A program made the position numbers and the translations under genes. Under the pieces are notes generated by a model. That model was not told where the DNA came from, did not search any database, and saw only the letters and a program-made list of their open reading frames with translations. Source: an uncultured Chloroflexia bacterium (GTDB lineage Bacteria; Chloroflexota; Anaerolineae; B4-G1; SLSP01). From it: 64,000 nt of DNA. Within the stretch, counting starts at the first letter, position 1; every line of letters starts with the position of its first letter. Of the stretch, positions 20 through 11,921 are shown piece after piece. Location of the stretch: assembly GCA_963751345.1 (NCBI GenBank), contig CAVVUS010000013.1:1-64000 (forward strand). The letters are read 5' to 3'.

Positions 20-47
20 TTGACAGGGCGGCACCCACGCCTATAAT
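20..47 (+). promoter_or_regulatory. sigma70-type promoter of the metG leader
   Basis: TTGACA (20-25), 16-nt spacer, TATAAT (42-47): perfect consensus hexamers. Confidence 0.85.
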
Positions 48-71
48 GAGCGTGGCAGGAGACACCCTACA

Positions 72-161
72 ATGTACAGAAGCGCGACGACCCGGACCGG
101 CATGATGATGCCCTGGGCCATGGTGATGAGCCATGGCCGTGCCGCGTTGGGGAGTGCCTGA
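72..161 (+). CDS. Met-rich leader peptide (29 aa, MYRSATTRTGMMMPWAMVMSHGRAALGSA)
   Basis: AGGAG Shine-Dalgarno at 57-61, ATG at 72, ATGATGATG at 102-110, further ATG at 120 and 126, TGA at 159-161; directly upstream of metG; too short for the ORF track. Confidence 0.8.
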   Translation: MYRSATTRTGMMMPWAMVMSHGRAALGSA

Positions 162-195
162 GCGCCCGAGAAGATCCGTTCCCGTTGTTGACGAT

Positions 196-227
196 GCGCC
201 TCCCCTGTGGGAGGCGCTTTTCGTTTT
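196..227 (+). terminator. Intrinsic terminator (attenuator) in metG leader
   Basis: GCGCCTCCC-ctgt-GGGAGGCGC stem followed by TTTTCGTTTT, 29 nt before the metG ATG. Confidence 0.85.
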
Positions 228-255
228 CCGAGCTGCCTGAACACAAAGGAGCACC

Positions 256-1842
256 ATGACCGAGCCATTTTACATCACGACGCCGATCTATTACGTGAAC
301 GACGAGCCTCATCTGGGCCACGCCTACACCACCGTCCTCGCCGACGTGCTGGCGCGCTACGCCCGCCTCCGCGGACAGGAGACCTTCTTCCTGACCGGAA
401 CCGACGAACACGGGCAGAAAGTCGAGCGCGCGGCACACGAGCGCGGCATCCCCCCGCAGCAGCAGGCCGACGAGATGGTCGTCCGCTTCCAGGACGCCTG
501 GACGCGTCTTCACATCAGCAACGACGACTTCATCCGCACCACCGAACCCCGGCACGTTGCCGTGGTCGAAGCCGCCCTTCAGGACCTGTGGGACAAGGGC
601 GATATCTATGCCGGTGATTACGAGGGATGGTACTGCGTCCCGGACGAGCGTTACTGGACCGAGAAGGACCTGGTCGACGGCAACTGCCCCGAGTGCGGCA
701 GGCCCGTGGAGCGCCTGGTCGAGAAGAACTACTTCTTCCGGATGAGCGCCTACCAGACCTGGTTGATCGACCACATCGAGACCCATCCCGGCTTCATCCG
801 CCCCGAGTCGCGCCGCAACGAGGTACTCGGCTTCCTGCGCCGGCCCCTGGGCGACCTCTGCATCAGCCGCTCCGTGGCGCGCCTGGGCTGGGGTATCCCC
901 CTACCCTTCGACCCGGAGTACGTCACCTATGTCTGGTTCGACGCGCTGCTCAACTACGTGACGGCAGCCCTCACGCCACGCCCCGTGGACGAAGCGCGTC
1001 CATACCCCTGGGAGCAGGGCGAGGACGCCCGTTTCGATGCCCTCTGGCCCCAATGTATCCACCTGATCGGCAAGGACATCCTCACCACCCACGCGGTCTA
1101 TTGGCCCACGATGCTCCACGCCCTGGGCCTCCCCCAGCCGAAGATGATCTTCGCCCACGGCTGGTGGAACTTCGAGGGCACCAAGATGTCGAAGTCCCTC
1201 GGCAACGTGGTCAAGCCGCTGGATATGGCCGGCCTCTACGGCGTGGACGCCTTCCGCTACTTCCTGATGCGGGAGATGACGCCGGGTCGCGACGCCGGCT
1301 TCAGCCAGGGCCTCATCGATGCCCGCTACCGGTCGGACCTGGCGAACGACCTGGGCAACCTGTTACGCCGCCTTGTGTCGATGACCGGGCGCTATTACTC
1401 CGGGCGGGTGCCCGCCCCCGGTGAGGAGACTCCGGACGACGCGGCGCTGCGAGCGCAGGCCGAGGCCGTGGTAGCCCCCACCTTCGCCGCAGTCGAGGCA
1501 CTCGCGGTGAACGACGCACTCGCCCAGGTCATGGCCCTGGTCGGCGAAATCAACCGCTATCTCGAGCAGACCGCGCCCTGGCGCGAGGCCAAGTCGGGCG
1601 ATCTCCATAGGGTAGCCACCATCCTCTATACCGGAGCAGAGGCCCTGAGAATCGCTTCAGTGCTGCTCCACCCCGTGATGCCCGAGCGGATGGCCGAGCT
1701 GCAGCGCCGCCTCGGCTGGGTGGCCGGGGTCCCGCACCGCGACGACCTCACGTGGGGGCTGCTGCAGCCCGGGAGCACCGTCGGCGACGGCCCCCCACTC
1801 TTCCCAAGGGATATCGCAGAGGAGATAAGTGCCGGCGATTAG
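256..1842 (+). CDS. metG: Methionine--tRNA ligase (short form, no C-terminal tRNA-binding domain)
   Basis: YITTPIYYVN, HLGH (HIGH), LTGTDEHGQK, YVWFDALLNY, IGKDI, KMSKS motifs; AAGGAG RBS. Confidence 0.97.
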   Translation: MTEPFYITTPIYYVNDEPHLGHAYTTVLADVLARYARLRGQETFFLTGTDEHGQKVERAAHERGIPPQQQADEMVVRFQDAWTRLHISNDDFIRTTEPRHVAVVEAALQDLWDKGDIYAGDYEGWYCVPDERYWTEKDLVDGNCPECGRPVERLVEKNYFFRMSAYQTWLIDHIETHPGFIRPESRRNEVLGFLRRPLGDLCISRSVARLGWGIPLPFDPEYVTYVWFDALLNYVTAALTPRPVDEARPYPWEQGEDARFDALWPQCIHLIGKDILTTHAVYWPTMLHALGLPQPKMIFAHGWWNFEGTKMSKSLGNVVKPLDMAGLYGVDAFRYFLMREMTPGRDAGFSQGLIDARYRSDLANDLGNLLRRLVSMTGRYYSGRVPAPGEETPDDAALRAQAEAVVAPTFAAVEALAVNDALAQVMALVGEINRYLEQTAPWREAKSGDLHRVATILYTGAEALRIASVLLHPVMPERMAELQRRLGWVAGVPHRDDLTWGLLQPGSTVGDGPPLFPRDIAEEISAGD

Positions 1843-2080
1843 GTTTCTACCGGCGACAGCACAGTGCGCCGGGAGCTCCTCCCCGTCCTGAGGTGTGTCC
1901 GGCCCGGTCGCCGCAACAGGGGAGGGCCGGCGGGCGATCAGCCCTCCCCGGAGGACGCGGACGAACCCGTTTCCGCGTCAGCAGGTTCGTGCCACAGGGG
2001 ATGCCCCCGCCTATGCATCGTCTGGCGCGGCTTCGCGAGTGGACGATACTATAGGGAACTGCATCAAAGGACTGGCACAG

Positions 2081-2494
2081 ATGAACATCCTGGACAGGAT
2101 TCGCACCTTCAACAAACACGTGATCAACCCCGTGACCCTCAAGATCGGAGGCTTGGTACACAGCCCGATCTCGGTGGTCCACCACGTCGGCCATCGCAGT
2201 GGCAAACCGTACAAGACCCCGGTCATCGTGGCACGCCTGGACGGCCGGTTCGTCTTCGCGCTGACCTACGGCGCGAACGTGGACTGGTATCGCAACATCC
2301 GCTCCGCCGGTCATTGCACGTTACGCTGGCACGGTGACACGTACGCCCTGGAGCGCCCCAAACCGATCGAGGCCGCCATAGCGCGGCCCGCGTTTGCGTT
2401 GCCCCTGCGGCTGATCCTGCGGGTAATAAACACGCGGCGCTTCTTCACAATGGTCATCTCCGAAAACCGCCCTCCGGCACATCCTCACAAGTGA
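2081..2494 (+). CDS. Nitroreductase family deazaflavin (F420)-dependent oxidoreductase
   Basis: HVGHRSGKPYKTPV and YGANVDWYRNI motifs; start moved to ATG 2081. Confidence 0.8.
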   Translation: MNILDRIRTFNKHVINPVTLKIGGLVHSPISVVHHVGHRSGKPYKTPVIVARLDGRFVFALTYGANVDWYRNIRSAGHCTLRWHGDTYALERPKPIEAAIARPAFALPLRLILRVINTRRFFTMVISENRPPAHPHK

Positions 2495-2781
2495 GGGGAG
2501 ACCCTCGCGAGGTGACCAGCCGGCAGCATGACAGCCATACCGCGGGCCCACCGGCGCCCGTTGGCAATTCCGGTTATCAGGCGCCCCAATCGCCCCCTTC
2601 CGCACATCGCCTGAAGGGAGTGTAGTATGGACGAGCAACGGTGGTTGCTGCACGTTGGACTGAATGCGGCGATGCCGGCCCCGAGGCGGTCGATCACTTC
2701 GGCCGCGCTGGCGGCGACCCCACTGACCACCCGTAGGGCCTACCTGCCGCTGGCGGTGCGCGAAAGTGAATCGGGAGAGCG

Positions 2782-3744
2782 ATGCTGATCCTCACAAGCT
2801 TGCACACTGGCGGCCGGCCCGGCATCTACGCAGCCGAGGACGACGGCTCAGCCTTCCGTTGTGTGACTGCGGGATACCGCCTGAGCGCCTACCAGCGGCT
2901 GCGCCTTTCACCCGACCGCACGCGCCTGCTCTTCCACGCCATCCCGCCCGGCCAGGAGAGAGGCCAGTTCTTCGTCTGGCCCTTGGGCACGGACAAGCTG
3001 GGCGTGTACCGTGAGGAAGAAGGTCCCTATCCCTACGACATCCGCTGGCTCACGGACGAGACGCTGCTCTGTGTGAGGAAGGACGCCCTCTGGATCGCCA
3101 ATCTTGTTACCGCCGGCCGCACCAATGTGGACCTCGGCGGCGCCTTCGTGGTGCTTGACGTCGCCCCGGGCGGCAGCCGGCTGCTGATGGTGAAGAGCCC
3201 ACCGAACGACGGCAGCATCTACGTAGGAGACATCGCTCGCGAGCAAGTAAGGGAAATCGTCCGGGGTGAGGACTTCGAGCGGACCCACGCCGTCTGCTAC
3301 CCCGTGGCGTGGTCGCCAGACGGACAAGCGGTCGCCTGCGTGGGCGGCATTGAGGACGAGGTATGGCTCATAGACGCAGACGGGGGCCATCCCCGCAAGA
3401 TCGCCGACACCGACTACTTCTGGAGGGAGATCCGGTGGTCACCCGATGGCGGTCAGATCGCCTACACGCGCACGCTCGATGCGGGCGGACCGGCCGCCGA
3501 CGTCGCGGGGGTCTTCGTCAAGGATCTGGCGACCGGTGAAGAGTCGCAGGCCTTGACCCTGAGGCACTCAGAAACCGGAAGCGACCGGTGGGGGTGGACT
3601 GCAGACGGTCTGGGCATGATCCACGCGAAGGGCGGTCCCGAGGGCGTCTCGCTTCTCCGGGCCAACTTGCAGACCGGTGTCACGGTCGAGCTGGTCAGTC
3701 ACGCCGCTGGGCTGGCAGACGTCGGCGAGCTGGTCATCGCGTAG
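2782..3744 (+). CDS. TolB-like beta-propeller (PD40/WD40-like repeat) protein
   Basis: Repeated LSPD / WSPDG / WTADG blade motifs. Confidence 0.75.
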   Translation: MLILTSLHTGGRPGIYAAEDDGSAFRCVTAGYRLSAYQRLRLSPDRTRLLFHAIPPGQERGQFFVWPLGTDKLGVYREEEGPYPYDIRWLTDETLLCVRKDALWIANLVTAGRTNVDLGGAFVVLDVAPGGSRLLMVKSPPNDGSIYVGDIAREQVREIVRGEDFERTHAVCYPVAWSPDGQAVACVGGIEDEVWLIDADGGHPRKIADTDYFWREIRWSPDGGQIAYTRTLDAGGPAADVAGVFVKDLATGEESQALTLRHSETGSDRWGWTADGLGMIHAKGGPEGVSLLRANLQTGVTVELVSHAAGLADVGELVIA

Positions 3745-3826
3745 GTTCCGCGCCGTCTCCCGTCACGATCTGCTGGACCGCGGGCAGCCTGTCCTGAGCG
3801 CAGCCTCAGGATCTCGCCCGCTCTGC

Positions 3827-3884
3827 GACCTTTGGGGTTTTCTCGTCGAGTAGGCACCTGCTTGTGAAGGAAACCCCAAAGGTC
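3827..3884. repeat. 14-bp perfect inverted repeat between convergent genes
   Basis: GACCTTTGGGGTTT (3827-3840) and AAACCCCAAAGGTC (3871-3884). Confidence 0.75.
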
Positions 3885-3930
3885 TTGGCCGACCGTCGTA
3901 GCTTTCCCGGAGATGTCGCCTGATCTTGCA

Positions 3931-5906
3931 CTACGCCTTGATCGGCAGCCTGGCCCCGTCGCGCAGGTACAGGGGAATCCGCTCCAGCGGCGCGTCAGCA
4001 GCGATCGTCTGCCCGCCGTCGTAGGTTTCGCCCGTCCAGGCGTCGGTCCACACCGCGCCCGCCGGGAGATAGACCTCGCGGCTGCGTGCGCCCTCCCACA
4101 CCACCGGCGCGACCAGCAGATCCGGCCCGAACATGAAGGCGTCGGTGATGTCGCCGCAGGCCGGGTCGTTCGGGAAGTCGACGAAGAGCGGCCGCATCGG
4201 GCGGCATCCCTGCCTCGGCAGCCCTCGCCATCTGCGCCATCACGTAGGGCCGCAGCCGCTCGCGCAGCGCCAGTGACTCGCTGTAGGATCCCGTAGACCT
4301 CGTCGCCGAAGGACCACACCTCGTTGGGCGCGCCGGTCCCCTCGCCTCCCGGCTGGCGAACGCCGTGGAGGCGGAAGAGCGGGCAGAAGACGCCATACTG
4401 GAACCAGCGAACGATCAGCTCGCGGAACGACGGATCCTCGATATTGCCGTCGTGGAAGCCGCCGATGTCCGTGGTCCACCAGGGGATCCCGCTCAGCCCG
4501 ATGTTGAGCCCGGCGGGGATCTGGCGGCGCAGCGACGCGAAGGTCGAGGGAATGTCGCCCGACCAGACGGCGGCGCCGAAGCGCTGGCTGCCCGCCCACG
4601 CGGACCGGCTGAGTGACACGATCTCGGTCTCACCCGCGGCACGCATCCCGTCGTAGAAGCCTTTGGCGTGGAGCATGGGGTAGAGGTTGCCGACCTCCAG
4701 ACCGTTGCCCAGGTAGTAGTGGACGTTCTCCGGATCCACGGGCCGGATCTCGGGCTCATCCGCGTCGAGCCACCAGATCCGCACGCCGTTGTCGAAGTAG
4801 TTCTCCTTCACCCGATCCCACACAAATTGGCGAGCGTCGGGGTTCGTGGCGTCGTAGAAATGCAGGTAGAGCTTGCCCGAAGGCACGTTGTCGGAGAAGT
4901 CGCGCAGCGCCAGGACGCCGCGCTCGCTGCCCGCCAGGTAGCCGCGCTCCTGCATCTCGGCGAAGTTCTCGCTGCGAGCGTTGACCGTGGGCCAGATCGA
5001 GACCATCAGCTTGACGCCCATCTCGGCAAGCTCCGCAGTCATCGCCGCCGGATCGGGCCACAGCTCGGGATCGAAGCGCCAGTCGCCCATCAACGTCCAG
5101 TGGAAGAAGTCGGCCACAATGACCGAGAGCGGAAGCCCACGGCGCTTGTACTCCCGCGCGACCTCCAGCAGCTCCTCCTGCGTCCGGTACCGCAGCTTGC
5201 ACTGCCAGAAGCCCGAGGCCCACTCGGGGAGATCGGGCGCGTGGCCCGTCGCGTCGGCGTAGGCGCCCAGGATGGCCGCCGGGGTCTCCCCGGCCGTGAT
5301 CCAGTAGTCCATCTGGCGAGTCGCCTCGGCGCTCCACCGGGTCCGGTTCACGCCCAGCTCGACCCGTCCGACGCCGGGGTTGTTCCACAGAAATCCGTAG
5401 CCGCGGCTGGAGAGCAGGAAGGGAATCGAGACCTTGGTATTGCGCTGGATCAGGTCGATGACGCAGCCCTTCTGATCCAGCAGGCCGTGCTGCTGCTGGC
5501 CCAGCCCGTAGAGCCGCTCGCCCTCGTACGCGCAGAAAGTCGCGTCGAGGTGATTGAGCCCGCCCTGGAGCGACTTGAACCACCGTGCAGGCGGATCGAT
5601 CACGTCCACGTACATCTCGGTCTCGGCCAGGAGCTCCTCACCGCCGGCGTCCAGGAAGCGTAGACGCCCGGCCTCTGAGAGCTCCGCCGTGATCGCGCCG
5701 TTGTACAGATGGGCTACGCCCTCACCTATCTCCGCGTGGGCCGTCGGTGCCGCCGCCGGCTCCAATAGCGCCTGCGGCAGATCGCCGCGGATCGCGGCGC
5801 CGTCCGCGGCGCGGACGCGCAGGCTGTTCGGTCCCCACGGCTCCACGCGCAAGGTCTGGTATTCGTGCCGCCAGATCAGCGTCCGGCCATCGATGATCTC
5901 GATCAT
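3931..5906 (-). CDS. Glycoside hydrolase family 31 (alpha-xylosidase/glucosidase-like), frameshifted near 4200-4280
   Basis: GFWQCKLRY, WLDADEPE nucleophile motif, WSGDI, DIGGF, PLFRLHG; C-terminal MRPLFVDFP...FMFGPDLLVAP...IPLYLR lies in another frame. Confidence 0.9.
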
Positions 5907-6059
5907 AGTTGGTGTTCTCCTTCACGAACCGGTCACAATCGACATATCGATAGTGTGCTGCGGAATTGCAGAATCGGCAACCTCGTCTGCCTGGGCGCCT
6001 GTGGTGCCGGAAGAGTCATGCTCGCCGGATGCAGTTCGGTGCGCACGCGCGGTTGAAGG

Positions 6060-7636
6060 TCATTCGTGCTGATCGGCTGCGAGCCGGCGACCGGCGAGGT
6101 GGGGTGCAGCACGCTCATCCAGCCGGTGCCGGAAGATGGCCCTGTCGGTCTGGACGTAGTAGTCGTGCCAAGCATCGTGACTGTGACACATGATCATCGT
6201 TCCGGCCTGCTCTGCGATCCGGGCCAGATCGTCAATGGACGCGACCGCGATCGTGTGGGCATCACCCAACAGCGACGTGACATCCTCGATGGCCACCAGC
6301 AGGCGCCGTACTTCTGCTGCACGCGGGATGCCGCATCGCTCCCTGCCGTCCTCAGGGCAGAGATGACCAGCACGCCTACCCCCACCAGCGAGATCACAGT
6401 GCCGACGGCGGCGACGCTCCGGAGGGCTGAGACGTAGAAGGTCTTCTTGAGAAAGGTGATGGTGTTCGGCTCGCTGGCCGCATATGCGATGGATGCTGAG
6501 ACCACGGGCGCCAGAGGATCATCCCCGCCGGATCGGATCAGCCGAAACTGTTGTTCAGTCAGCTCAAATGGTATGCGCGGGGCGAAGAACGAATCGGCAA
6601 GGAAATGCAGTCCGATCCTGCCGGCTACCTTTACCTCGGGGAGGAAGGTCACCGTATAGCTCTTCTGGTGGACACCGACGCCCAACTCCAACGTGTCAAT
6701 CACGGCCTGCAACTCTGATAGAGCGAGCTCATCCGTCGTGGTGAAGGAGGCTCCCTCAAATGGGGTCTCGGGCTGCAGCTCAAACGTTCGTTTCCAGCCG
6801 TCTGAACTCGTCATCTCGACGCTGAGGCGATAGGTCCCCCCTACGACTGAGGGCTGCGCCGCCGTCAGTTGATAGGTGAACCCGATCTGGAGCCGGTCCA
6901 CGACCTTGCGGAAGACAGGGTCGCCCGACCTTACAAGGCCGGCGTCGTAGATGTCCGCCGGAGCATGGGCTGTATACGTGAACTCACCTCTGTGCTGGTA
7001 ATCAAGGCCGCGACTGACCAGCCGCTGAAGAGGCCGCGTGAAGGCGTACCCCGCAAGTCCAAGAAATAGCGCGCAGACGACGCCCACGATGACGAGCAGT
7101 TCGGGGAGTGAGGGGCCGCCACCGGAGGAGACGGGATGCCGCCGCGAGGGCTTCGTGCCGGAACGCTGGTTTGGATTTGTCACTATACTCATGATTGTCA
7201 CTCCTAGGAGGCCGGCGACAGCCGCCATGTTGCCTGGTGATTGAAGCTGCTTGACGTACGTGCCAAGCTTCGGGATATGGACCCAGTACCTGGCGATGAT
7301 ATCGGCCCTCGTGGGACAGTAGGGATCGACGAAGGTGTTATGGTCGCCCTGCATGAGGAAGCAGCCTTCTTCCGTTTCCTCGATGATGCGATGGATCACC
7401 GGCCCGATGCTTGGCTCTCGGTATACAACGATGTCCCCGACCGCATACTCGGAGGCAGTCCGCAGCAGGACCAGGTCCCCCTCCCGCAGCGTAGGATACA
7501 TGCTGTTGCCGCTGATCAGGATGTAGGCCGCGTGCCCGCCGAATTGGATGGGCGCGAGGGACAGCCAGAGGACGCAGATGAGGAGCCAGGGAGCCACGGC
7601 TGAGCCGAGGCTAAGCTTTCTCCGTTTCGTAAGCAT
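6060..7636 (-). CDS. sipW: SipW/archaeal-type signal peptidase I with long C-terminal (DUF5305-like) extension; frameshift near 6300
   Basis: ISGNSMYPTL (catalytic Ser), VIHRII (His), QGDHN..D; TM helices; C-terminus KYG.../V.SIDDLARIAE continues in ORF 6060-6296. Confidence 0.8.
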
Positions 7637-7657
7637 ATCTCTGGTCTCCATTTGCAG

Positions 7658-7686
7658 AAGAGCGCGGCCGACGAGGCCGCGCTCTT
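7658..7686 (-). terminator. Strong hairpin between the pilin-like gene and sipW
   Basis: AAGAGCGCGGCC-5 nt-GGCCGCGCTCTT 12-bp stem, weak U-tract. Confidence 0.6.
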
Positions 7687-7740
7687 GCTCTCAGCATTGA
7701 GCTGGTGATTCTTGGACGTTATACCGACACTCTGCGCAGC

Positions 7741-8144
7741 TTACGGCGTCGGCGTGCGATAGCTACCACCAGAGGTGGCGACGACGGTGAGCTCATTTAG
7801 GGCTACTGTCGACAGACCAACCGTCGGCAGTGGTCAGATCGCATGTCCAAACGAGTTCCAGTATCGATTACGCAGTCGTACCACGTACCATCCACTGTGT
7901 CGACCTGAGCCATCACGCTGCGGCGGGCCTGCGCCGAGCGGTCAAACCCCACGTCCGTCGTGGTGGTCAGCAACCATCGTATACTGGATATTAGTGACGG
8001 GTATCCGGAGATGGCTTCCGAGCCAGAACCTGCCGATGACGCGGGTACCGTATTTGCGGCAGCGAATGCGTAGAATGAACCGGCGAGCACCAACGTGCCG
8101 ACGACGACCAAGAGCGTCCGGAAAACTGATTTTCTTGCGAACAT
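7741..8144 (-). CDS. Small secreted protein with SipW-type signal peptide (TasA/camelysin/pilin-like), frameshifted
   Basis: MFARKSVFRTLLVVVGTLVLAGSFYAFAAANTV signal; GGAG RBS; C-terminus VALNELTVVATSGGSYRTPTP-stop at 7741 in a shifted frame; directly upstream of sipW. Confidence 0.65.
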
Positions 8145-8275
8145 AATATCATCTCCAATTTCTGATGAGTCGTAGTTGATAGGTGATGAAGAAGTTTCAG
8201 AGAGACGATCTGAGTGGTTGTGCGATCCGACTTCTCATCGTGCGGTCGCACCGGGTATCTCTGACTACAAGAGGA

Positions 8276-8303
8276 ATTATACCATATTATAACCAAATGT
8301 CAA
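8276..8303 (-). promoter_or_regulatory. sigma70-type promoter for the pilin-like/sipW operon
   Basis: Minus strand TTGACA-16 nt-TATAAT with TG just upstream of the -10. Confidence 0.8.
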
Positions 8304-8421
8304 TGGTGAGTTTGAAAATGGTATGAGTGACGGGCACCCGCGATGGCGCCTCCCTGGGCACGCTCGTGGCCCGGTCGCCCATCGCCGCCGGAGGCATCCT
8401 CGACGGCGACAGCACGCCGCA

Positions 8422-8448
8422 GAAGACGCCTCGGCGGGGCGTCTCTAC
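8422..8448 (-). repeat. GTAG-type REP palindrome (type A)
   Basis: Minus strand GTAGAGACGCCCCgccGAGGCGTCTTC, near-identical to copies at 31266 and 53719. Confidence 0.8.
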
Positions 8449-8492
8449 GAAGGCCGGTGCGCCCTCGGCCAACTCCTATGTATGCCACCACA

Positions 8493-8520
8493 TTGACACC
8501 CGCCGCCAGAAGCCTATCAT
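8493..8520 (+). promoter_or_regulatory. sigma70-type promoter of the 8598-15362 operon
   Basis: TTGACA-16 nt-TATCAT. Confidence 0.7.
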
Positions 8521-8597
8521 CAACGTGACGGTAAGGCCCGAAACTTGTTCCGTGACCGCCGCCCATAGCTGCCCTGAGCCGGACAAGGAGAGCGCCA

Positions 8598-9201
8598 ATG
8601 CCTGCATTCCTCGACCCAACACAGCCGATCGCCACGTGTACCGCCACGACCTGTGAGGGCTGCCCCGCCGGGCAGCTCGTGCACTGTCACTTTCGCGGTC
8701 GAGACCTGGCCCACTTCCTGTCCATGATGCTGCCGGCCTTCGTCACCGGCGGCGCAGGCATCGCTCGCGTCGGCTGGGTGTGGCTCGTGCCCTGGGCGGC
8801 CATCGCTGTCGGCTACTTCGGATTCCTGGAGATCCGCGTGATGTGCTCGCACTGCCCGCACTACGCCGAACCCGGCACCTCTCTGAAGTGCTGGGCGAAC
8901 TACGGCGCGCCCAAGCTGTGGGCCTACCGCCCCGGGCCGATGTCGCACGCAGAGCGGTTCTGGTTTGCCGCCGGGATGGTGGCCGTCTTGGCCTATCCAC
9001 TCGACTTCCTGCTGCAGGCGCCCAATGGCTGCTGCTGGTAATCTTCGTGCTGACGACGGTCGCCGCAGCGACCACACTCAAGATGTCTTTCTGCACCCAG
9101 TGTATGAACTTCGCCTGCCCGCTTAACGCGACCGGTGACAAGGCTCGCGCGGCCTTCTTCGCCCGTAACCCTAAGGTGGCCGAGGCCTGGGGCGTGGAAC
9201 C

Positions 9202-9205
<4 letters not shown>
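8598..9205 (+). CDS. Cys-rich integral membrane protein of unknown function (frameshift near 9030)
   Basis: AAGGAG RBS; CxxxxCxxC...CHF, CSHCPHY and FCTQCMNFACPLN motifs around ~4 TM helices; stop overlaps next start (GTGA). Confidence 0.7.

Positions 9206-11921
<2,716 letters not shown>

Follow-up and report, generated by a model that had tools for sequence, protein, structure and literature searches.

In the window analysed here, that is, the whole stretch of 64,000 nucleotides (nt) from contig CAVVUS010000013.1 of an uncultured Chloroflexia bacterium, a short leader precedes metG, the gene for a methionyl-tRNA synthetase (MetRS). Judged by comparison with related sequences, this leader is a real, conserved cis-regulatory element, and it is probably a ribosome-mediated attenuator which reads methionine (Met) codons and controls an auxiliary MetRS of type 1. 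Its open reading frame (ORF), Met codons, hairpin and terminator, as well as the fixed spacing between them, were established at the level of sequence comparison; from these we infer two alternative pairings (segment 1 with segment 2, or 1:2, and segment 2 with segment 3, or 2:3) and a response to Met-tRNA. A Met-codon leader-peptide attenuator with a terminator had been proposed earlier from the letters of the window (the original prediction), and the proposal was supported by the conservation of the ORF, its frame, an ATG-NNN-ATG motif, the stop codon and the terminator, together with covariation in the hairpin and the terminator.

All the elements described in the original prediction (promoter, AGGAG, 29-codon ORF, hairpin, terminator and metG) were found in place, all of them on the forward strand. 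The sigma-70-type promoter (20..47) comprises TTGACA (20-25), a 16-nt spacer and TATAAT (42-47), with 12 of 12 matches to the consensus; the window starts at base 1 of the contig, and the upstream neighbourhood of the promoter lies outside the sequence. The predicted transcript start is near 54, about 18 nt 5' of the leader ATG, and a Shine-Dalgarno sequence, AGGAG (57..61), lies 10 nt 5' of that codon. The leader ORF (72..161; 29 codons plus TGA at 159-161) encodes MYRSATTRTGMMMPWAMVMSHGRAALGSA and contains five internal Met codons, three of which form the regulatory run ATG ATG ATG (102..110; codons 11-13). Segment 1 (81..103) is C-rich, extends from 5' of the first regulatory Met codon into it, and is the partner of segment 2 in the minimum free energy (MFE) structure of 72-159. 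Hairpin P1 (116..138) has a perfect stem of 8 bp, GGCCATGG (116-123) and CCATGGCC (131-138) closing the loop TGATGAG, and contains the two other Met codons (120-122 and 126-128). Segment 2 (139..159), whose possible partners are segment 1 and the terminator 5' arm, includes the conserved core GTTGGGGAG (146-154) with the G-run GGGGAG (149-154), the leader TGA following five bases downstream. The intrinsic terminator (196..227) is composed of a G+C-rich stem of 9 bp, GCGCCTCCC/GGGAGGCGC (196-204/209-217), with the loop CTGT and a T-tail at 218-227, so that the stem region 196-217 is followed by the T-rich TTTTCGTTTT; the terminator 5' arm, or segment 3, includes CTCCCC (200-205), the complement of GGGGAG. 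The putative regulated gene, metG (256..1842), is preceded by a Shine-Dalgarno sequence read as AAGGAG (246..251) and encodes a 528-aa methionine--tRNA ligase of the PRK12267/type-1 kind, without the C-terminal tRNA-binding domain.

Promoter-like and terminator-like sites showed little excess in the window (1 vs. a shuffle mean of 0.5, and 2 vs. a shuffle mean of 1.2, respectively), and folding of the whole leader (56-255) gave z = -2.8. It was the comparative evidence, an identical ordered layout in all 14 leader sequences, which indicated that the leader is more than a product of chance. This working set comprised leaders from 12 species-level Anaerolineae genomes and two metagenome variants, after leaving out L061 and L062 (equal to L051 over the stretch compared) and L063 (equal to L002 over the leader); the organisms carrying the leader are represented by metagenome-assembled genomes only. 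In the window's genus, the leader was present before each of the seven type-1 metG genes.

The layout shared by the 14 sequences consists of ATG-NNN-ATG, 6 nt, the hairpin (21 nt), 9-10 nt, a (T)TGGGGAG-like run (TTGGGGAG), the stop codon, the terminator and metG. When the alignment was anchored on the hairpin, no insertion or deletion appeared between the Met codons and the G-run. An ATG was found 9 nt 5' of the hairpin in all sequences, another at 15 nt in 13 of 14, and a middle one at 12 nt in 8 of 14; thus, in 13 leaders ATG-NNN-ATG kept a constant spacing to the hairpin, and ATG-ATG took its place in the remaining one. The presence of both Met codons inside the hairpin was confined to L051 and the window's genus, nine sequences in total, and one of them was kept in L066 and L074. 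The original prediction had counted five internal Met codons; of these, only the two or three directly 5' of the hairpin were kept in all lineages, and the ones inside the hairpin were lineage-specific. The terminator was present in all leaders, with a T-tail, and its 5' arm was of the GCCTCCC type in 12 of 14. Neither the N-terminal leader codons nor the sequence of the spacer between stop codon and terminator (19-38 nt) was conserved, and the distance from terminator to metG varied from 19 to 49 nt.

The hairpin and the terminator varied in sequence in a way which maintained their pairing. The eight aligned pairs of the hairpin were 100% paired in the 14 sequences, three of them having changed on both sides, and 6 of the 10 aligned pairs of the terminator displayed changes on both sides. 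Taken together, hairpin and terminator were 95.6% paired with nine pairs doubly changed, a result reached by none of 500 shuffles, and controls in which the positions were slid gave 37-53%. The loop of the hairpin was not conserved. The peptide encoded over the hairpin in the window, AMVMSHG, was identical in 9 of the 14 leaders and elsewhere was replaced while pairing was kept: the variant arms GCCAAGGCC/GGCCTTGGC, GCCACGG/CCGTGGC and GTCACGGA/TCCGTGAC correspond to the peptides AKAAGLG, ATVIRRG and VTECLRD, respectively. Since both arms change together and the peptide drifts, selection acts on the RNA hairpin, the in-frame Met codons and the terminator, and not on the peptide.

Several signs point to translation of the leader ORF. 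An ORF in the same frame, of 27-33 codons, was present in all 14 leaders; its start codon, ATG or GTG, lay 6-48 nt 3' of a -10 box (mostly TGGTATAAT-like, read by eye), and an SD-like (Shine-Dalgarno-like) purine run preceded the start in 12 of 14. Gaps within the ORF 5' of the G-run measured 3, 6 or 9 nt (L004 and L060, for example, differ by 3 nt). The stop codon was located 20-21 nt 3' of the hairpin in 11 of 14 leaders and 17 nt in L004, falling in the same column in 12 of 14, and it switched between TGA and TAG among relatives at this kept position; in L002 and L051 it came 9-12 nt later, following an insertion of 2 nt or 1 nt. In 12 of 14 sequences the G-run lay 5-6 nt 5' of the stop. 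It is the start close to a -10 box with SD-like runs, the gaps in multiples of three and the kept stop column with exchange of TGA and TAG which argue for translation. As a separate observation, a mere 6-9 nt separated the -10 box from the leader start in two relatives, L002 (about 1915-1935 on the reverse strand) and L068 (about 1320-1337), and these leader ORFs may therefore be leaderless or nearly so.

The alternative structures were explored by folding. In the window, segment 1 (81-103) paired with the G-run stretch (139-159) in the MFE structure of 72-159 (z = -2.79; 2 of 200 shuffles as stable), forming a composite hairpin whose internal loop contains the Met codons and whose tip is P1. 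This 1:2 element, of the classical type, is an addition to the original prediction. An equivalent 1:2 pairing occurred in the MFE structures of the relatives when each leader was folded over the stretch which begins at its start codon and ends shortly 3' of the G-run; these folds had z values of -0.4 to -5.2 across the 14 leaders, and in 11 of them no more than 10 of 200 shuffles were as stable. The 2:3 pairing of the window, between GGGGAGTGC (149-157) and GCG-C-CTCCCC (196-205), has 9 bp and one bulge. It appeared in the fold of the nascent RNA under a mask for a ribosome which has the last regulatory Met codon in its A site, at a stage when the terminator 3' arm is still to be synthesised, and it was the MFE structure of the segment from P1 to the terminator loop, folded on its own, in 14 of 14 leaders. 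The antiterminator GGGGAG:CUCCCC can form in every leader.

On these elements, attenuation could operate by the classical 1:2 / 2:3 / 3:4 scheme, as follows. Transcription would start about 18 nt 5' of the leader ATG and a ribosome would load at once. With plentiful Met-tRNA(Met), the ribosome would pass the codons at 102-110 and the hairpin, reach the stop codon (159-161) and cover GGGGAG (149-154), which would allow the terminator (196-217) to form and would end transcription before metG. With scarce elongator Met-tRNA, the ribosome would stall at the Met codons and occupy segment 1 (81-103) together with the hairpin 5' arm, leaving the G-run free to pair with the emerging CUCCCC of the terminator 5' arm; the terminator would be delayed and metG transcribed. 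If no ribosome were present, segment 1 would pair with segment 2 and the terminator would form. Severe undercharging would also lower initiation at the leader, leading to termination in this scheme.

A number of results weigh against such an attenuator. As the original prediction had pointed out, and the point stands, initiation at the leader requires fMet-tRNA, which is charged by the same enzyme. The 1:2 duplex surpassed duplexes with a shuffled segment 1 (at 0.09 or below) in only 8 of 14 leaders, a test of cognate against non-cognate duplexes gave mixed results, and 1:2 pairs could not be counted by alignment column because their register varies between lineages. For 2:3, the six aligned pairs were 92.9% paired with one double change, a percentage reached by 121 of 500 shuffles, so covariation was not significant; composition-matched G-rich shuffles of segment 2 were roughly equal to the real sequence in how frequently they paired with the terminator arm, and in L007 and L051 just 4-5 bases of the terminator arm are paired. 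Equilibrium modelling favoured the terminator in all masking states (P 0.83-1.0). Furthermore, a single MetRS clade accounts for all 14 sequences, so that part of the conservation reflects shared descent; L004 and L060 are near copies.

These results divide what the original prediction had put forward about the switch. The antiterminator proposed between 149-157 and 196-205 retained its pairing of 9 bp in the window and can form in all leaders, but lacked significant covariation and did no better than shuffles; the comparison of metG upstream regions of relatives yielded the conserved upstream ORF (uORF) with Met codons and the covarying terminator, but not a significantly covarying antiterminator. 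Folding with ribosome masks, in turn, gave the antiterminator in the nascent fold, although the terminator prevailed at equilibrium. A thermodynamic switch was rejected, as the terminator won under every masking state, and any switch must be kinetic because of this dominance; the switch of the trp attenuator is likewise kinetic.

The gene downstream of the leader encodes a second MetRS. The protein of the window matched NF008900 (PRK12267, the type-1 or Gram-positive kind) with 669.5 bits against a cut-off of 598, matched PF09334 and PF19303, and carries the HLGH and KMSKS motifs in its translation; the names type 1 and type 2 follow excerpts of PMC8165550 and PMC9071491. Another contig of the same genome encodes a MetRS of 596 aa which matched PRK00133 (type 2) with 564 bits, just below the cut-off of 587, and TIGR00398 above the cut-off. 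Type-2 MetRS was present in 41 of 41 genomes of the order and type-1 MetRS in seven, all from the window's genus, with 69-80% identity to that of the window. Carriers of the leader in the window's genus had both types in 7 of 7 cases; among the carriers of other families type 2 was found in 3 of 5, and in the other two (genomes 92 and 85% complete) it was not found at E-values (E) up to 1e-40. The window metG is an auxiliary second copy and not the housekeeping gene, and of the 12 carrier genomes at least 10 have the type-1 gene in addition to another metG.

Orthologues from the rest of the class were informative on what the leader may sense. A search of 401 genomes of the class identified 27 with a MetRS of type 1 (E up to 1e-120). 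Upstream of these genes, a leader like that of the window was found at five loci (L066-L069 and L074), a T-box at 10 loci (6 of the 10 at or above the Rfam gathering score), neither of them at another 10, and no upstream DNA was available at one more. The leader was carried by four families, the window's included, and family-level searches around the genomes G145 and G090 found no further carriers. It was also observed that the type-1 metG matches of L067, L069, L077, L078 and L086 contained one in-frame stop each (TGA in four, TAG in L077), for which a sequencing error, disruption of the gene or a match overrunning the gene end may account.

The type-1 MetRS orthologues with a T-box in place of the leader had 45-49% identity, and their T-boxes spanned 254-306 nt, the window element being about 90 nt long. 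In a tree of 32 MetRS proteins (without L074 and L051, which are partial genes, L060, nearly a duplicate of L004, and L090, truncated by a contig end), the genes with the leader grouped in a single clade (99/99), and those with a T-box in a separate one (98/96). Five T-box-type genomes lacked a type-2 metG, so the type-1 enzyme appears to be the sole MetRS there. As the T-box, a sensor of uncharged tRNA, holds the same position before the orthologues, the idea that charging of tRNA(Met) is the input of the leader is supported.

Other explanations of the leader were weighed against attenuation by Met codons. A translation-independent RNA switch, in which the AUGs of an internal loop would bind tRNA(Met), methionine, S-adenosylmethionine (SAM) or a protein such as MetRS and so choose between terminator and antiterminator, would fit the location of the Met codons in the internal loop of the composite hairpin, loosely like a T-box specifier loop, as well as the covariation of the hairpin stem as an RNA element and the conservation of the G-run and the ATGs at the nucleotide level. 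However, the Rfam scan suggested with the original prediction, run on positions 1-400 of the window with E up to 10, yielded no T-box, no SAM riboswitch and no amino-acid leader family (Trp, His, Leu, Thr or Phe), its sole match being ctRNA_p42d on the terminator (16.7 bits against a gathering score of 50; E 0.78). No T-box or SAM match explains the leader, and both explanations were rejected. The element is also far shorter than the T-boxes of the orthologues, the hairpin cannot be a mimic of an anticodon arm because its loop is not conserved, and a switch without translation leaves unexplained the Shine-Dalgarno sequence and start codon, the gaps which keep the frame and the fixed stop with its exchange of TGA and TAG. 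We consider such a switch improbable.

The remaining explanations accept either the ribosome or the terminator and dispense with the supply of Met-tRNA. The ribosome could be made to stall by an inhibitor of translation or by an arrest peptide acting as it is synthesised, in the manner of the erm and cat leaders, and the identity of AMVMSHG in 9 of 14 sequences and the nature of the gene, an auxiliary copy of an antibiotic-target enzyme, would agree with this; but the peptide drifts freely where the hairpin nucleotides change and pairing is kept, the ATGs are the only codons kept across all lineages and MetRS is not known to shield ribosomes against drugs which bind them, all of which make this explanation very unlikely. 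It is likewise hardly probable that the terminator is simply leaky and constitutive, with a small ORF which is incidental or has a separate function and with no sensing at all. The thermodynamic dominance of the terminator in every modelled state and the lack of statistical support for the antiterminator speak for it, whereas the Met codons, the hairpin distance, the G-run and the stop are kept across lineages whose MetRS are 65-80% identical to that of the window, while the flanks drift, and in orthologues a T-box occupies the same site.

Searches with the hairpin itself added few leaders. When the 20-mer core of the hairpin was used to scan a collection of genomes representing species, it gave 29 matches, seven of which were true leaders (Anaerolineae or Chloroflexota); six of these were loci already in the set of the window's genus and one, L051, was new. 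A further 20 matches fell in one conserved coding region of Alphaproteobacteria and two others in coding regions of Veillonella and Pelolinea (one each), and none of them were leaders. In the Alphaproteobacteria (L031, L032, L035-L038, L040, L041, L043-L045, L047, L048, L050, L052, L055-L059), the exact core of 20 bases encodes AMVMSHG in the context ..AAHDAMVMSHGA..; this match is a coincidence of coding sequence and not a leader. A metagenome scan with a degenerate pattern returned six matches, four of them true (three duplicates of known sequences and the new L060) and two due to chance, and no synonymous variant of the hairpin core was found in it.

The genes 3' of metG (1895-11118) encode an F420H2-type reductase-like protein, a beta-propeller protein, a GH31 enzyme, an S24 peptidase-like protein and a PPDK-like protein. 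The ORF right after metG (1895-2494, forward strand) matched PF04075 weakly (F420H2-dependent quinone reductase, 28 bits), and this neighbour was not conserved where compared. Neither a biosynthetic cluster nor another methionine gene was found in 1895-11118; the possibility of a self-resistance gene inside a biosynthetic cluster was unsupported, as this region is unrelated to methionine or secondary metabolism.

The type-2 metG of the window genome is located 3' of a sigma-factor-like gene and its terminator; its -10 box is a plain TGGTATACT, its 5' untranslated region is short and it has no leader, and an Rfam scan of the 1100 nt upstream of it gave zero matches. In relatives, the type-2 metG was preceded by a different Met-rich uORF (MMM or MM) and a terminator, 3' of the sigma-factor-like gene and often overlapping its stop. 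Four of these uORFs were confirmed by coordinates: MNKWMVLSVMMCIAQSRGDARRP in L016 (748-819, forward strand), ..SMMMRCVHSRGDARRPERDGP in L027 (608-694, forward), ..TSMMMRNAQSRGATRRPERDGP in L030 (681-770, forward) and MMFSGCWMGVMGMMC.. in L015 (3185-3271, reverse). More were noted by sequence inspection in L013, L019, L026, L028, L010, L014, L018 and L024. By eye, several type-2 leaders presented Met codons, 6 nt, a hairpin and then a G-run, as in the type-1 layout. The Met-rich uORF was absent upstream of type-2 metG in all five carriers of the type-1 gene and its leader examined (G000, G011, G012, G015 and G018; L092 700-860, L097-L101); among non-carriers of the same genus it was present in six, and G002 and G010 had neither leader. 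This partly complementary distribution, drawn from few and related genomes, may indicate that each genome has a single Met sensor.

The leader-peptide attenuators of the textbooks respond to codons for Trp, His, Leu, Thr, Ile/Val or Phe, and methionine control is usually assigned to T-boxes, SAM riboswitches or repressors. In the pheM-pheST system of Escherichia coli, a leader ORF with cognate codons, alternative pairings and an intrinsic terminator control the cognate aminoacyl-tRNA synthetase. The window leader resembles this and other trpL-type systems in its short ORF with clustered cognate codons, its predicted alternative pairings and its terminator, and resembles pheST in having a synthetase gene as its putative target. 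It differs in that the regulatory codons are those of Met, the amino acid with which translation also initiates, in having just two or three conserved regulatory codons, in the extra apical hairpin within the predicted 1:2 element and in the host (Anaerolineae, Chloroflexota); nor is there any relation in sequence, given that no Rfam leader family matched.

Closer parallels exist among auxiliary synthetases. Vecchione and Sello reportedly described trpRS1 of Streptomyces coelicolor, an auxiliary, indolmycin-resistant TrpRS under a leader attenuator with Trp codons; the window gene would likewise be a second, normally attenuated synthetase copy induced by stalling of the ribosome on cognate codons, whereas the amino acid, the phylum and the sequence differ. 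In Bacillus subtilis, thrZ and tyrZ are silent second synthetase genes induced through a T-box. The window gene would resemble them as a back-up synthetase whose expression is reserved for times of reduced charging of the cognate tRNA, the sensor being a T-box there and a leader peptide here. The T-box leader (RF00230) of the Anaerolineae orthologues shares with the window leader its position, gene family and presumed input, the charging of tRNA(Met); it binds the tRNA directly and without translation, whereas the window leader has no T-box match and would be read by the ribosome.

Descriptions of related leaders were sought in the literature. The trpL-type attenuator class is described in PMC1183508. 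The nearest published parallel found concerns Streptomyces lividans TK24, for which excerpts of PMC8079986 report predicted leader peptides before alaS, thrS, leuS and trpS, and a 'metL' with two internal Met before metNIQ, proposed for a methionine importer, with unclear termination and no typical Rho-independent terminator. These predictions are similar to the window leader in placing leader peptides, one of them containing Met, upstream of synthetase genes or, for metL, of the importer genes; going by the same excerpts, metL does not precede metG, unlike the window leader, which has in addition a strong terminator and belongs to a conserved family with covariation. Full-text searches, whose coverage excluded supplements and largely also subscription journals, turned up no account of an attenuator with Met codons upstream of a gene for MetRS. 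As the element is absent from Rfam 15, genome annotation misses it.

A broader proposal, which is tentative and, with all its parts taken jointly, rather doubtful, is that the back-up MetRS and its leader would constitute a portable fail-over cassette derived from a T-box family and silenced by the Met-codon attenuator. The cassette would be switched on only when the housekeeping type-2 enzyme fails to keep tRNA(Met) charged, for instance under a natural MetRS inhibitor. It would have spread patchily among four families of Anaerolineae, with one sensor per genome, its carriers lacking the Met-rich leader before type-2 metG.

If the leader is indeed an attenuator reading Met codons, attenuation would extend to the amino acid which also starts every protein, and this raises the question of how such a device behaves when the initiator and elongator tRNA(Met) are both undercharged. 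A single gene family would then have a T-box as regulator in one of its clades and a leader peptide in a second, and an auxiliary synthetase of a different structural type would be under demand control. Both the contrast between T-box and leader and the auxiliary synthetase would bear on the way bacteria buffer translation against starvation or synthetase inhibitors.

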